The translations under genes and the position numbers were made by a program. Source: Escherichia phage vB_EcoM_JS09. Taken from it: a stretch of 64,000 nt of DNA. The stretch lies in sequence record NC_024124.2. One strand, given 5' to 3'. Numbering within the stretch: the first letter of the stretch is position 1; each line of letters opens with the position of its first letter. The notes below the pieces were generated by a model. That model searched no databases. It was not told the origin of the DNA and saw only the letters and a program-made list of their open reading frames with translations. Positions 8,956-12,601 of this stretch are shown here, in pieces.

Positions 8956-8989
8956 GTAATAAATACCTCCTATAAACGTGGGAGGTATT

Positions 8990-9478
8990 ATGAATATATT
9001 TGAAATGCTTCGTAATGACGAAGGTCTTAGACTGACTTTATACAAAGACACTGAAGGCTTTTGGACGATTGGCATAGGCCATTTAGTAACAAAGAACCCG
9101 TCTTTAGCCGTAGCTAAAGCTGAACTTGACAGAATGATCGGTCGTAAATGCAACGGTACAATTACCCTTGATGAGGCTGAAAAGCTATTTAATGAAGACG
9201 TTGATAAAGCCGTCCGCGGAATCTTGGGTAATGCTAAACTTAAACCGGTATATGATTCTTTAGATGCAGTTCGTCGATGTGCATTGGTCAATATGGTCTT
9301 CCAAATGGGTGTAGCAGGTGTAGCTGGTTTTACTAATTCTCTTCGTATGCTTCAACAAAAACGTTGGGATGAAGCGGCAGTAAATCTAGCCCAATCTAAA
9401 TGGTATCGTCAGACACCTAATCGCGCGAAACGCGTAATCTCAACATTTAAAACAGGAACTTGGAAAGCGTATATATGA
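8990..9478 (+). CDS. e: T4-type lysozyme (endolysin)
   Basis: [32 protein letters not shown]... near-identical to T4 lysozyme as recalled; GGAGG before ATG at 8990 (8978 in the track is a GTG). Confidence 0.95.
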
Positions 9479-9756: not shown

Positions 9757-9814
9757 TGTTTACTTCCTCCAATGGTTTTGATACTATACATTCATCAACT
9801 ACTTGGAGGAAATT

Positions 9815-10228
9815 ATGACTCGTATCAATTTAACACTTGTTTCTGAACTGGCCGACCAACATCTTATGGCTGAGTATCGTGAATTACCACGCGTATTTGG
9901 TGCAGTCCGTAAACATGTTCAAAACGGTAAACGTGTAAAGGATTTTAAAATCTCTCCAACATTTATCTTAGGCACAGGTCACGTAACATTCTTTTACGAC
10001 AAACTCGAATTTTTACGTTTACGCCAAATCGAGCTAATCGCTGAATGCTTGAAACGTGGTTTCAAAATCAAGGACACGACTGTCCAGGATATTTCCGACA
10101 TCCCTGCCGAATTTTGTAATAATTATGTCCCGTCCGAAGCGTCCATTGCGATAAGTCAAGCACGCTTAGATGAAAAAATTGCTCAACGTCCGACTTGGTA
10201 CAAATACTATGGTAAATCAATTTACTAA
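9815..10228 (+). CDS. denV: endonuclease V, pyrimidine-dimer DNA glycosylase
   Basis: [31 protein letters not shown]... about 90 percent identical to T4 endo V as recalled; GGAGGA upstream. Confidence 0.95.
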
Positions 10229-10234
10229 GGAAAA

Positions 10235-10351
10235 ATGAAAATGTATCAAGAATTTATCATTGAAGCAGAGGCCAAAGGTCCTAAAGTAGATGTTGACGAT
10301 ATTGGATATGATTTTAACAACTTCGGAATTATTTCTGGCGGTAAAGCTTAA
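10235..10351 (+). CDS. mini internal-protein-like ORF (38 aa)
   Basis: Not in ORF track; MKMYQEFIIEAE... is a capsid-targeting-like N-terminus followed by only about 28 residues. Confidence 0.4.
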   Translation: MKMYQEFIIEAEAKGPKVDVDDIGYDFNNFGIISGGKA

Positions 10352-10384: not shown

Positions 10385-10414
10385 TGCTCTATCAAAACAA
10401 ACAAGGAAACAAAA

Positions 10415-10729
10415 ATGAAAACGTATAAAGAATTTATTGCAGAATCCGCCAACCAACGCGTTGAAGGTGGTTATATTTGGATTGAACAAGTTGAGCCACC
10501 GAGCCGCACTTCTACAGGTAAATGGAAAATTACTGTTGATGGTCCTGGTGGTAAACGTAGGACTCTTAAAGAAATTAACGGGTACTATGAAGAAGCTCTT
10601 TCGGATGCAGGAACTTACATGATGCAAATCATGATTAAAAACCCTGAAAACCGTTTTGCAGCTAAAGTCTTCCGCCGTATTGGTAATAAACTTTATGATG
10701 CATATTCTAAAAACTTCCCTAAAGAATAA
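10415..10729 (+). CDS. internal head protein-like (104 aa)
   Basis: N-terminus MKTYKEFIAE; AAGGAAA upstream. Confidence 0.75.
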   Translation: MKTYKEFIAESANQRVEGGYIWIEQVEPPSRTSTGKWKITVDGPGGKRRTLKEINGYYEEALSDAGTYMMQIMIKNPENRFAAKVFRRIGNKLYDAYSKNFPKE

Positions 10730-10755
10730 CATAAATTAAAACAATAGGAAAAAAA

Positions 10756-11058
10756 ATGAAAACATATCAAGAATTTATTACTGAAGCGCGAGTGAGTGCA
10801 GGTAAATTAGAAGCCGCTATAAATAAAAAGGCCCATTCATTTCATGATTTGTCCGATAAAGACCGTAAGAAACTTGTAAGCCTTTATATTGACAAAGAGC
10901 GTATTCTCGCTCTTCCTGGCGCTAATGAAGGTAAACAGGCCAAGCCTTTGAATGCTGTCGAAAAGAAAATTGATAACTTTGCTTCTAAATTCGGTATGTC
11001 TATGGATGACCTTCAGCAAGCGGCTATCGAAGCAGCTAAAGTAATTAAAGGTAAATAA
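10756..11058 (+). CDS. internal head protein-like (100 aa)
   Basis: N-terminus MKTYQEFITEA; T4 IP-sized. Confidence 0.75.
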   Translation: MKTYQEFITEARVSAGKLEAAINKKAHSFHDLSDKDRKKLVSLYIDKERILALPGANEGKQAKPLNAVEKKIDNFASKFGMSMDDLQQAAIEAAKVIKGK

Positions 11059-11115
11059 CAGTTTACTTTCTCCTAGAATTGTGATAGTATATTCATAATT
11101 ACTTGGATGGGTAAA

Positions 11116-11244
11116 ATGACTTATATTAATTTGACTTTAGTATCTAAATTTGCTGATCAACATTTAATCGCCGAATACTGTGAATTGCCACGTGTTTTTG
11201 GTATAATTCGTAAACACGTGGCAAAAATATTTACATTCAAATAA
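11116..11244 (+). pseudogene. truncated second copy of denV 5' end (42 codons)
   Basis: Translates [42 protein letters not shown], matching the denV N-terminus at 9815 and then stopping; has its own GTTTAC promoter at 11061. Confidence 0.6.
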
Positions 11245-11387
11245 AATGGGAACAACCTGGACCTCATGATTCTATGAGGGATTCCCGCCAACCTGTAATA
11301 AGGTCGAGCCCAAGTGCGGTAATGGGTAAATACAGAAATGGACAATTCATGCGCCATGGAATGGCCCCCAACCTTAAGAGAAATAAT

Positions 11388-11927
11388 ATGAGAACATTTT
11401 TAACTGGACCTTATCTATCCCTGATGAATGCTTTTACACACCATTCTGATGCTAGAGTAGAAGAAATTTGTAAGAACGGTTATGCCCCACCATTTGAAGA
11501 CGTACTCAAGCAGTACTGTACACTTCGTTTAGACGGCGGCAGACAATCAGGTAAATCGACCGCAGTAACTAATTTTGCTGTTAATTGGCTGTATGACGGT
11601 GGAACAGTTATTGTTCTTTCTAATACTTCAGCTTATTCTAAAATTTCTGCTGGCAACATTGAAAAAGAATTTTCTCGTTATTCTAGCGACGATATTCGAT
11701 TCCGTTTATTTACTGATTCTGTCCGTAGTTTTATTGGCAATGAAGGTTCTAAATTCCGTGGATTAACGCTTTCTCGTATTCTGTATATAATTGACGAGCC
11801 TATTAAAGCTCCTGATATGGATAAGATTTACAACATACATATTAAAACAGTCCAACACTGTTGCAAAAGCAAATATTGCATCGGCGGTATTGCTCGTCCT
11901 CAATTTTTTGTGATTGGAATGCAATGA
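11388..11927 (+). CDS. P-loop NTPase-like protein (179 aa)
   Basis: Walker A GGRQSGKST and Walker B-like ILYIIDEP; start set at ATG 11388 (AAGAGAAA upstream); in-frame ATGs at 11274 and 11322 are alternatives. Confidence 0.55.
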   Translation: MRTFLTGPYLSLMNAFTHHSDARVEEICKNGYAPPFEDVLKQYCTLRLDGGRQSGKSTAVTNFAVNWLYDGGTVIVLSNTSAYSKISAGNIEKEFSRYSSDDIRFRLFTDSVRSFIGNEGSKFRGLTLSRILYIIDEPIKAPDMDKIYNIHIKTVQHCCKSKYCIGGIARPQFFVIGMQ

Positions 11928-12232
11928 TGACCACTATTGAAGTTTTTGAGTATTGTTATAACAGCCCAGTATGCAATAAAAGGGCTCTTGTAGAAAATTA
12001 CGAGATCTACCATTTTAAACCTAAACGATATTGTTTGACTAAAGGTCCGTTCGCAGGTCAGCAGGTTCTTTGTACTGCTCCTAATGCACGGTTGATGACT
12101 AGTATTCCGCATTTCAAAATGGAATTTATTGATGGGCCGTTTAAGGGATTAATCACTCAAAGTTTAATGGCGTTTAATTCCGTCCCATTTTTGATTAAAG
12201 AAAAAACTTGGATAAATTTATTTTCTAATTGA
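11924..12232 (+). CDS. hypothetical protein (102 aa)
   Basis: ORF track trimmed to ATGATG at 11924 (overlaps upstream stop). Confidence 0.5.
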   Translation: MMTTIEVFEYCYNSPVCNKRALVENYEIYHFKPKRYCLTKGPFAGQQVLCTAPNARLMTSIPHFKMEFIDGPFKGLITQSLMAFNSVPFLIKEKTWINLFSN

Positions 12233-12238
12233 GGTTAT

Positions 12239-12601
12239 ATGAAAGCATATCAAATTCTTGAAGGTGCGCATAAAGGCACTATTTATTTTGAAGACGGTAC
12301 TCAGGCCCGGATTATTGTCTCTAAGACTTTTAAAGAAGACGCTATTGTAGACCCGGAAATTTTCTACGGTTTGAATGCCCGTGAAATTGAAATTGAACAT
12401 CAACCTAAAGTTAAAATTGAAGGTGGTCAACACCTGAACGTTAACGTTCTGCGTCGTGAAACTCTGGAAGATGCAGTTAAGCATCCGGAAAAATATCCTC
12501 AGCTGACCATCCGTGTATCCGGTTATGCAGTTCGCTTTAACTCTCTGACTCCAGAACAGCAGCGCGACGTTATCGCTCGTACCTTTACTGAGAGTCTATA
12601 A
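12239..12601 (+). CDS. grcA: GrcA/YfiD-like autonomous glycyl radical cofactor
   Basis: C-terminus [63 protein letters not shown] carries the RVSGYAV glycyl-radical motif; C-terminal half uses CTG/CGT-rich host-like codons. Confidence 0.85.

Follow-up and report, generated by a model that had tools for sequence, protein, structure and literature searches.

A decayed T4-type denV remnant and a non-coding vs.8 leader with a candidate RNA junction motif in Escherichia phage vB_EcoM_JS09

Endonuclease V of phage T4, the product of denV, uses Thr2, Arg3, Arg22, Glu23 and Arg26 as catalytic and DNA-binding residues, and Arg3 and Arg22 are among those required for its activity. Published work on RegB and S1 deals with the denV ribosome-binding site only. 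In T4 and in the Tequatrovirus vB_VIPECOOM03 the gene order around denV is ipIII-ipII-denV-vs.8. T4-type phages are known for hyperplastic regions, in which promoter/stem-loop (PeSL) cassettes are shuffled and indels are formed (Arbiol et al. 2010, PMC2839356; Comeau et al. 2014, PMC4122927). Here we analyze a locus of this kind in a stretch of 64,000 nucleotides (the window; record NC_024124.2) from Escherichia phage vB_EcoM_JS09, a Mosigvirus (RB69-like T-even phage), where a truncated denV, termed denV', is followed by the leader of vs.8. We regard it as highly probable that denV' is a decayed import and that the leader behind it is the native, non-coding leader of vs.8 with an RNA module inside it. 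At the level of sequence, the evidence covers the pseudogene, the imported patch and the deletion mechanism, as well as the non-coding status, conservation, strand and covariation of the leader.

Compared with T4 endonuclease V, denV' shares the homologous first 37 codons, the native early promoter and the T4 position between ipII and vs.8. It differs by having only 37 of 138 codons in frame, by the exchanges R3Y and R22C and by a weakened ribosome-binding site. The features on which the argument depends are the following.

9815-10228, + strand: resident intact denV of the RB69 type, endonuclease V, 137 amino acids (Pfam PF03013 Pyr_excise, E = 6.6e-14)
10756-11058, + strand: ipII, gene of an internal virion protein, left part of the imported T4-type patch (PHROG 7857)
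11061-11090, + strand: T4-type early promoter of the former denV cassette (GTTTAC at 11061-11066, 18-nt spacer, TAGTAT at 11085-11090; read from the sequence)
11116-11244, + strand: denV' pseudogene, a 42-codon open reading frame with denV codons 1-37 and the last seven codons out of frame (ATG at 11116, stop at 11242-11244)
11185-11197 and 11212-11224: perfect 13-bp inverted repeat (TTGCCACGTGTTT / AAACACGTGGCAA; repeat I2) that ends at the deletion junction
11221-11226: GGCAAA microhomology at the junction of a 292-bp deletion, where both halves of the alignment overlap; GGCAAA stands at both ends in the intact gene
11245-11387, + strand: non-coding leader of vs.8, 143 nt (the "GC-rich leader")
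11388-11927, + strand: vs.8, 179 amino acids, P-loop-like (PHROG 1488, unknown function, E = 1.4e-77)

Origin and decay of the denV remnant

The product of denV' matches PHROG 1183 (endonuclease V) over residues 1-37 of the 139-position profile (E = 1.6e-13). The first 126 nt of denV' share 90-92% identity with denV in some 220 Tequatrovirus-type records of the phage collection, but just ~77-81% with denV of T4 itself. Against vB_VIPECOOM03 (locus L032), the region aligns in two collinear halves with 95% identity each. The left half (window 11000-11226, L032 969-1194) comprises the 3' end of ipII, the promoter and denV codons 1-37, and the right half (window 11221-11450, L032 1481-1709) the last seven denV codons, the spacer and the start of vs.8. 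Because the halves overlap on GGCAAA, which is present twice in the intact gene, exactly 292 bp have been lost between two 6-bp direct repeats. This deletion shifts the frame, and the last seven denV codons persist out of frame. The initial annotation had noted that the fragment terminates after 42 codons; the frame has this length, and its stop results from the GGCAAA deletion, beyond which the 3' codons of denV survive. In intact T4-type denV, 12 of the 13 pairs of the inverted repeat next to the junction are present, and the hairpin it can form may have favoured replication slippage.

The fragment had first been described as a second copy of the 5' end of denV, about 900 bp downstream of the intact gene. 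Codons 1-37 are indeed there, starting 888 bp past the stop of the resident denV, and the proposed alignment to the resident gene gives 73% identity over 162 nt including the promoter (E = 1e-19), a similarity that greatly exceeds chance and is not of low complexity. A duplication of the resident 5' end together with its promoter, in the course of an ip-cassette insertion, would make the two copies paralogous halves of a single event. The promoter and ~105 nt of coding sequence can be aligned (9758-9920 with 11061-11220), ip cassettes do separate the two copies of denV, and PeSL-type promoter cassettes are documented mediators of shuffling (PMC2839356, PMC4122927). However, the copies are only 73% identical, whereas the fragment is 95% identical to Tequatrovirus denV, the 3' end of a T4-type denV persists past the deletion, and the adjoining ipII is 100% T4-type. 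In-place duplication, which we consider highly improbable, cannot yield this combination of T4-type identity, retained 3' end and T4-type ipII. With 90-95% identity to Tequatrovirus denV and only 73% to its resident counterpart, denV' is no duplicate of the latter but the remnant of a second, imported allele. The T4 order ipII-denV-vs.8 therefore places denV' in the exact position of T4 denV. The resident denV itself shares just 70% identity with denV of Tequatrovirus.

The imported patch extends from ~10745 to 11460 and is 94-100% identical to vB_VIPECOOM03 in a sliding comparison, except for the denV' part with 90-94%. Identity amounts to 99-100% in ipII and to 52-57% immediately upstream (10400-10756). 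Within the patch, the leader reaches 96-98% identity to Tequatrovirus. Past ~11460, after the first ~70 nt of vs.8, identity drops from 94% to 67%; it ranges from 67 to 90% in the right flank and from 70 to 80% in the wider neighbourhood. That denV' is the most diverged part of the patch is expected for a pseudogene. The presumed direction of transfer, from Tequatrovirus to Mosigvirus, has the identity patterns as its sole basis, which counts against this part of our interpretation.

Relative to vB_VIPECOOM03, denV' carries the substitutions R3Y, E11K, L12F, R22C and V31I, with five non-synonymous and three synonymous codon changes, and its ribosome-binding site reads GGATGGG vs GGAGAGG in the intact T4-type allele. 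Thr2, Glu23 and Arg26 are kept, Arg3 is replaced by Tyr and Arg22 by Cys. With its 42 codons, the frameshift and the 292-bp internal deletion, it falls short of the full-length reading frame of the endonuclease V family (~138 residues). Judged by these features, denV' is a pseudogene that belongs to the endonuclease V family by descent and not by function, and there is no prospect that it encodes a glycosylase. It is scarcely credible that the 42-codon frame encodes a functional small protein instead, e.g., a retained DNA-binding N-terminal peptide of endonuclease V. Although the promoter, the ATG and the open frame have been kept, with the same arrangement in at least three phages (AV110, pEK20 and TU01), the weakened ribosome-binding site, the radical exchanges R3Y and R22C, the five non-synonymous against three synonymous changes and the frame-shifted tail all speak against a product under selection, as do close relatives with larger deletions or with none of the fragment. 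Moreover, 90-94% identity in denV' as opposed to 100% in ipII and 96-98% in the leader is what relaxed constraint predicts.

The GTTTAC promoter proposed for the fragment is present, but it is the native early promoter of denV and was not acquired by the fragment. It ends 25 nt 5' of the denV' ATG, the SA79RD record annotates the identical site as a T4-type early promoter, and a generic sigma-70 scan of the region missed it. The site matches the promoter 5' of T4 ipIII at 92%. In this respect the locus resembles PeSL shuffling, where one promoter sequence recurs before several cassettes, small early-gene cassettes with their own GTTTAC-type promoters are swapped and indels are bounded by short repeats. 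It differs in that exchange here has occurred between genera and that the visible events are microhomology deletions (GGCAAA, ATGGGTAAA) and not PeSL-to-PeSL excision. Of the PeSL stem-loop there are only weak signs at denV', with 8-bp arms (11040-11047 / 11096-11103) and a 48-nt loop flanking the promoter. A terminator scan found none at the denV' promoter; WebGeSTer called one in SA79RD.

Identity over 10700-12300 of the window amounts to 98.8% with Escherichia phage AV110 and to 97% with pEK20 and TU01, all three of which share its 292-bp deletion. The comparison with related phages that the initial annotation had called for thus recovers both the T4-type arrangement ipII-denV-vs.8 and a series of deletions. 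HX01 has a larger internal deletion that leaves just ATGACTCG joined to the last ~70 nt of denV. In SA79RD and most Mosigviruses (the 84-87% coverage class vs 10700-12300), everything between two copies of a direct repeat has been lost:

11107-11115: ATGGGTAAA, 9-bp direct repeat, copy 1 (repeat D3)
11322-11330: ATGGGTAAA, 9-bp direct repeat, copy 2 (repeat D3)

The junction in SA79RD reads ...ACTTGGAGGGGTAAATACAG..., joining both repeats. Deletions of this type remove denV' and the RNA three-way junction described below, and they retain vs.8 and the hairpins with GGA loops in its leader.

Taken together, the following history is probable. A Mosigvirus ancestor that already held the RB69-type denV at 9815-10228 would have acquired a T4-type cassette with ipII, the early promoter, denV, the vs.8 leader and the start of vs.8, likely when a Tequatrovirus infected the same cell and the two genomes underwent homologous recombination, with crossovers probably in the conserved N-terminal region of the ip genes and within vs.8. 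The second denV would have been redundant and may have lost 292 bp by slippage between the GGCAAA repeats, beside the 13-bp repeat that can form a hairpin. denV' has since gained disabling substitutions, and the sister phages show other deletion states of the remnant. The suspected recombination scar is thus real, as a scar of deletion and recombination in a region of ip/denV cassette shuffling, but it stems from import followed by decay and not from duplication in place. Exchange and decay of this kind are ordinary for T4-type phages, and the locus behaves like the published hyperplastic regions. On its own, denV' is of little import: it is a clean, datable example of inter-genus cassette import followed by stepwise erosion through microhomology deletions.

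The surrounding genes on the + strand are, in order, the e lysozyme gene, a small ip gene, denV, three ip-type cassettes, denV', vs.8, vs.7 and vs.6. All three ip-type cassettes start with MK(T/M)Y(K/Q)EFI, and the vs.6 product is a GrcA-like glycyl-radical protein. As the initial annotation had stated, a P-loop gene follows the leader: Vs.8 contains a Walker-A-like motif (GGRQSGKST) and has faint similarity to terminase ATPases. No tRNA or tmRNA is predicted at the site of denV' and the leader. The first of these genes has the following position:

8978-9478, + strand: e, lysozyme

We also observed a 38-codon open reading frame at 10235-10351, MKMYQEFIIEAEAKGPKVDVDDIGYDFNNFGIISGGKA, which is an internally deleted, in-frame form of an 84-residue ip-like gene of SA79RD. 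The hyperplastic region thus shows another microhomology deletion, ~900 bp upstream of denV'.

The non-coding leader of vs.8

The G+C content of the leader is 46.2% vs 37.1% in the window, which corresponds to the 97.7th percentile of 143-nt windows. The leader is thus moderately GC-rich and not extreme. The GC-rich stretch, noted earlier as part of a recombination scar, does not belong to the scar; it is the native spacer 5' of vs.8 that T-even phages conserve. It is 92-95% identical to the sequence 3' of the denV stop in T4 and other Tequatroviruses. In wV7 it is preceded by an ip4 gene instead of denV. Since the leader adjoins vs.8 in T4 and wV7 whatever cassette precedes it, it travels with vs.8 and not with denV.

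T4 records annotate the leader as codons 1-37 of a 216-residue Vs.8, and the old record X04567 gives alternative starts. Whether the stretch encodes these N-terminal 37 residues, or a separate leader peptide (M...QPVIRSSPSAVMG), can be judged from its variation. A coding function would agree with the stretch being open and in frame with vs.8 in T4 and in the window, with an in-frame ATG ~5 codons 5' of the conserved core in the T4 type, the long type and L036, and with the alternative starts of X04567. However, the start of Vs.8 at MRTF/MKF/MKY is kept in every T4-like locus, whereas the leader frame is in frame with the vs.8 ATG in some of these loci and stop-separated or in another frame in others. 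Even pEK20, 97% identical to the window, has a stop between the leader frame and vs.8, as do many T4-like phages if the frame does not differ altogether. The L038 type has a TAA directly 5' of the core, and the rV5 type has a TGA and no start codon. An alignment of 31 T4-like sequences gives column entropies for the three codon phases of 0.44/0.44/0.51 in the leader, compared with the classical coding pattern of 0.72/0.49/1.03 in vs.8. The leader lacks 3-nt periodicity and is better conserved than the coding sequence adjoining it. Six would-be codons are invariant at all positions including the synonymous ones, while a would-be Ile codon changes radically (AUA/ACA/AAA/GAA/GCA). The motif described below also occurs within tRNA arrays. 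A coding role of the stretch is very improbable on these grounds. The leader is non-coding, and codons 1-37 as annotated for T4 Vs.8 probably do not encode protein. We consider the leader the valuable part of this locus, with the implied correction of the T4 Vs.8 annotation.

Apart from the motif, the leader contains three hairpins.

11262-11279, + strand: hairpin Pa (CCUCAU-GAUUCU-AUGAGG), with the compensatory variant CCUUAU/AUAAGG in L065
11333-11365, + strand: two GGA-loop hairpins (CAGAA-AUGGACAA-UUCAUG; GCCA-UGGAA-UGGC), just 5' of the vs.8 ribosome-binding site

Hairpin Pa is shortened yet still paired in L022 and L069. The GGA-loop hairpins are nearly invariant over T4-like genera, and their pairing is backed by covariation in part only. 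As a side observation, the sequence (C)CAACCU occurs three times in the leader, at 11253-11259, at 11289-11295 (the 5' strand of helices P1 and P2 of the motif) and at 11368-11374, and the repeats could permit alternative pairings with AGGU at 11301-11304. In vB_VIPECOOM03, the spacer between ipIII and ipII (L032 614-695, 5' of ipII) holds a degenerate copy, 75% identical, of the 3' two-thirds of the leader, which the covariance model of the motif did not detect. This copy suggests that the leader was once duplicated along with cassettes.

A candidate three-way junction

Within the leader, a 32-nt core with the sequence ACCU-N6-AGGU-CGAGCC-N5-GCGGUAA (window 11291-11322) recurs with unrelated flanks across phages of enteric bacteria. 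A covariance model describes it as a three-way junction with the following elements.

11288-11325, + strand: three-way-junction RNA motif, 38 nt
11288-11290 with 11323-11325: helix P1
11291-11294 with 11301-11304: helix P2 (ACCU/AGGU), loop 11295-11300
11305-11307: junction strand J2/3, CGA
11308-11309 with 11316-11317: helix P3
11318-11322: junction strand J3/1, GGUAA

Conservation is strongest in the P2 stem and in the unpaired CGA and GGUAA, whereas variation is found in the P2 loop and at the N positions. Helix P1 delimits the conserved stretch, and the sequences beyond it are unrelated. In 39 distinct sequences the closing pair of P1 is AU in 26, UA in 5, UG in 5, CG in 2 and GC in 1, and it is never unpaired; its score was reached by none of 500 shuffles. 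P2 is invariant save in a second motif copy of the Karamvirus type (L043b), in which GCCU/AGGC replaces an A:U by a G:C pair. For P3 (G28:C37 and C29:G36) we found the variants GUC/GAC (L089, L043b), GG/CC (L101) and GCC/GGC (L045b, L109), and wobble variants in HX01, K65 and mobillu. When all helices are scored in 48 distinct sequences, pairing is found in 95.1% of cells, and five pairs are changed on both sides. None of 500 shuffles matched the observed values on all five measures, and slid registers pair in 13-48%. The G-U pairs identify the strand of the genes as the transcribed one. As far as comparative analysis goes, this covariation supports the three-way junction.

Several points weigh against this structure. 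The helices are very short with 3, 4 and 2-3 bp, and the folding energy is no better than that of shuffled sequences, with z = 0.55 for the 148-nt leader and z = 0.03 for the 46-nt core. The covariation rests on few independent changes because most paired positions are invariant, and the 48-sequence alignment (A5) is model-derived and was fitted to the three-way-junction model. An alternative pairing of GAGCC(C) with the 3' flank (model B) pairs in 72% of cells, with one strand invariant. RNAalifold proposes other registers, as well as an alternative 8-bp helix ACUAACCU/AGGUUAGU for the KpCHEMY26 group. Furthermore, the junction is dispensable, as most Mosigviruses have deleted it and remain viable.

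Two other models were rejected. An RNAalifold model with ACC/GGU and GUA/UGC helices leaves uncompensated loop mutations in L041, L059 and SEA1 and is broken by U40 to C in K65. For P3, the register GCC/GGU (model R1) had first been assumed; it gave way to G28:C37 and C29:G36 in view of the variants L045b, L043b, L089 and L101. Duplex energies of the P1 flanks are -4.96 kcal/mol for cognate and -4.04 kcal/mol for swapped pairs; they discriminate P1 weakly because most flanks are CC/GG. Two short identities are presumably coincidental: GCGGUAAU (window 11316-11323), which we take to be the 8-nt sequence of the 16S rRNA 530 loop, and GUGCGGUAA, which we assume to be present in E. coli RNase P RNA, both matches being of a length at which coincidence is the natural explanation.

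Distribution, context and possible role of the motif

The core is found in many genera of Straboviridae (Tequatro-, Mosig-, Karam-, Jiaoda-, Gelderlandvirus and others), in Vequintavirus (JES2013 and relatives, rV5-like), in a KpCHEMY26-like group (46-70 kb contigs), in phage Ivi (45 kb) and in uncultured contigs of 27-104 kb. The covariance model detects a single copy in the 64-kb window (74.8 bits, E ~1e-22) and no second copy in the window or in T4-like loci. A scan with the 11:24 pair left free gave no further variants. Some 25 matches to a relaxed pattern (ACCTTCTTNAAGGTCGA...) were rejected by the covariance model; they lie on the reverse strand of a protein-coding gene and vary at third positions. 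L054, L058 and L067 were left out as coding false positives of the same kind. Loci of the Karamvirus type have two tandem motif copies ~114 nt apart (L043 5091-5253, L045 9018-9181, L076 360-523), the second of which is diverged and holds compensatory P2 and P3 changes.

Searches of Rfam 15 gave only noise over window 10700-11700 (best 18.6 bits at E > 2), and in ten loci from other phage families just tRNAs scored and nothing over the motif. By BLAST the core is absent from E. coli genomes, and in the plasmid collection it has a single match, in the 137.6-kb record CP057073.1, which resembles an rV5-like phage. As these searches were otherwise empty, the motif does not derive from the host, nor is it antisense to one of its genes over any length that could be detected. 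Among 185,579 bacterial and archaeal species with one genome each, there were three matches, all in GC-rich metagenome-assembled genomes (MAGs) and without the P2 hairpin, which is the number expected by chance. In the literature searched there was nothing relevant on the core sequence, on vs.8/regB/ipII or on structured phage RNAs near tRNA clusters. Records of "Campylobacter phages" (135-141 kb) carry a copy of the rV5 type; like CP057073.1, they are probably mislabelled rV5-like coliphages.

Of the non-T4-like loci, 16 have tRNA genes, and in every one of them the motif shares the strand of the tRNAs, at 46-1183 nt from the tRNA array or, in L060, inside it. In the KpCHEMY26-like group it is part of a domain of ~145 nt with a basal stem of ~18 bp and a covarying hairpin adjacent to it. 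In rV5-like phages several helices with compensatory changes surround the motif, and a consensus TTGACA promoter for the next gene lies 3' of it. In L041 and L089 an intrinsic terminator follows at 25-35 nt. In T4-like phages the motif is placed between hairpin Pa and the GGA-loop hairpins, 65-100 nt 5' of the vs.8 start.

The last of these contexts would agree with a gene-specific cis-regulator of vs.8-vs.7-vs.6, i.e., a riboswitch or a protein operator such as a CsrA-type GGA-hairpin site. The motif keeps its distance of 65-100 nt to the vs.8 start in all T4-like genera and is followed by the GGA hairpins and the ribosome-binding site, and the duplicated ACCU strands (CAACCUG at 11253 and 11289), together with the alternative 8-bp helix seen elsewhere, could allow switching. 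In the rV5-like and KpCHEMY26-like phages, in Ivi, L041/L089, L060 and L079, however, the motif adjoins no ORF start but precedes a promoter or terminator or sits between tRNAs. Phages that have lost the junction retain vs.8 and the GGA hairpins, and no known aptamer family in Rfam 15 matches. We consider a gene-specific cis-regulator unlikely. The CsrA idea was dropped: by eye there are four GGA triplets in the leader vs ~2 by a rough chance estimate, a difference that lacks statistical support.

The core might also act as DNA, as a recombination hotspot or as a site for an endonuclease or another protein, or be a recent neutral passenger. Its location in hyperplastic, recombination-prone regions, the degenerate leader copy between ipIII and ipII in Tequatrovirus, an HNH-like ORF near the motif in L029 and the unremarkable folding energy would all fit. 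On the other hand, compensatory changes and G-U pairs are strand-specific signatures of RNA, the orientation always follows that of the flanking genes or tRNAs (16/16), the limits of conservation are those of the P1 helix amid unrelated flanks, and in the T4-like alignment the leader is more conserved than vs.8. This makes a function as DNA, or the lack of one, quite improbable.

Several observations concern the surroundings of the motif. In the KpCHEMY26-like loci L044 (1900-2470) and L060 (1000-1520), several structured units follow one another, each enclosed by a basal stem of similar sequence (AGUGCUCUU..GUUGUGAC / GUCACAAC..AAGAGCAUU); one of the units contains a T-arm-like GGUUCGACUCC. 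The arrangement suggests RNA cassettes in series that could be excised, and it would be a guess that RNase III processes them. The tRNA array of a 70-kb KpCHEMY26-like phage (L038 9535-9610) includes a tRNA with a CUA anticodon, called "Pyl" by ARAGORN, which is a putative amber suppressor. A tRNA-like gene predicted in rV5-like phages (L020 1714-1812, L050 2501-2599) would have an enlarged loop with an anticodon of four bases (ATCC). At L079 3407-3475 a sub-threshold tRNA-like match (26.7 bits vs a gathering score of 29) lies directly 3' of the motif, which would then have tRNA-type structures on both sides. The ORF in L029, a 75-kb contig, spans 2195-2731 and resembles by eye a homing endonuclease of the HNH/AP2 type (MSFDLNWLL...NGCWNFTG...GYG); it starts ~240 nt 3' of the motif (1954-1985).

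With respect to its mode of action, we propose that the early promoter upstream drives + strand transcription of the leader and that the RNA would fold into P1, the P2 hairpin ACCU/AGGU, CGA, a short P3 hairpin and GGUAA. The nucleotides that never vary in the junction most likely create a pocket in which a small ligand or a conserved factor of host or phage is bound. The motif would be an autonomous RNA module, i.e., a processed stable RNA, a decoy or an element of processing or stability, and not a switch specific for vs.8. We favour an autonomous module because the motif mostly lies at a distance from ORF starts, within tRNA operons or closed domains or ahead of terminators, and because it is dispensable in many Mosigviruses. 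For the motif taken alone, the chance of its being an autonomous accessory module seems to us slightly short of even; a regulator specific for vs.8 is a distinctly weaker candidate, and a DNA-level or neutral element is improbable. More specifically, the junction could represent an undescribed class of functional RNA that is horizontally exchanged among virulent phages of Enterobacteriaceae, expressed from early or tRNA operons and trans-acting, a possibility we raise only tentatively. Such an RNA might bind a conserved host factor or a small molecule; it could be, e.g., a new aptamer, a small ribozyme or a decoy against a defence that targets RNA or tRNA. If this is true, the class has been hidden for ~40 years inside a mis-annotated T4 ORF.

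The motif deserves attention for its near base-for-base conservation over unrelated phage families, typically beside tRNA genes and without a counterpart in Rfam or bacteria, and it is directly testable via T4 genetics. Should it bind a host factor or counter a defence, it would be an RNA-based player at a locus known for counter-defence proteins. It matches no curated family and resembles junction aptamers and ribozymes in architecture only. The motif is apparently undescribed, although conserved non-coding RNA motifs of unknown function are a known kind in phages. The rnaC and rnaD RNAs of T4 ("species 1 and 2") are small stable RNAs of unknown function that are encoded with the tRNA cluster. 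The motif is like them in context only, being non-coding, structured and co-oriented with phage tRNA genes; it differs in that the T-even motif is ~11 kb downstream of the tRNA cluster, in the leader of vs.8. With the hammerhead and small three-way-junction aptamers it has in common a size of ~40-45 nt, three short helices, a conserved unpaired junction and the occurrence in phages. Unlike in the hammerhead, its junction strands have 0, 3 (CGA) and 5 (GGUAA) nt, the core CUGANGA/GAAA is absent and there is no Rfam hit. Pseudo-ToxI of phage phiTE is a phage-carried RNA decoy that mimics an antitoxin. In contrast to pseudo-ToxI, the motif has neither tandem repeats, the pair of the Karamvirus type being ~114 nt apart, nor a homologue in E. 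coli genomes. What the two share is that they are accessory, dispensable, horizontally exchanged and non-coding in virulent enterobacterial phages, and the motif likewise sits among genes with counter-defence roles, namely those for internal proteins and tRNAs.

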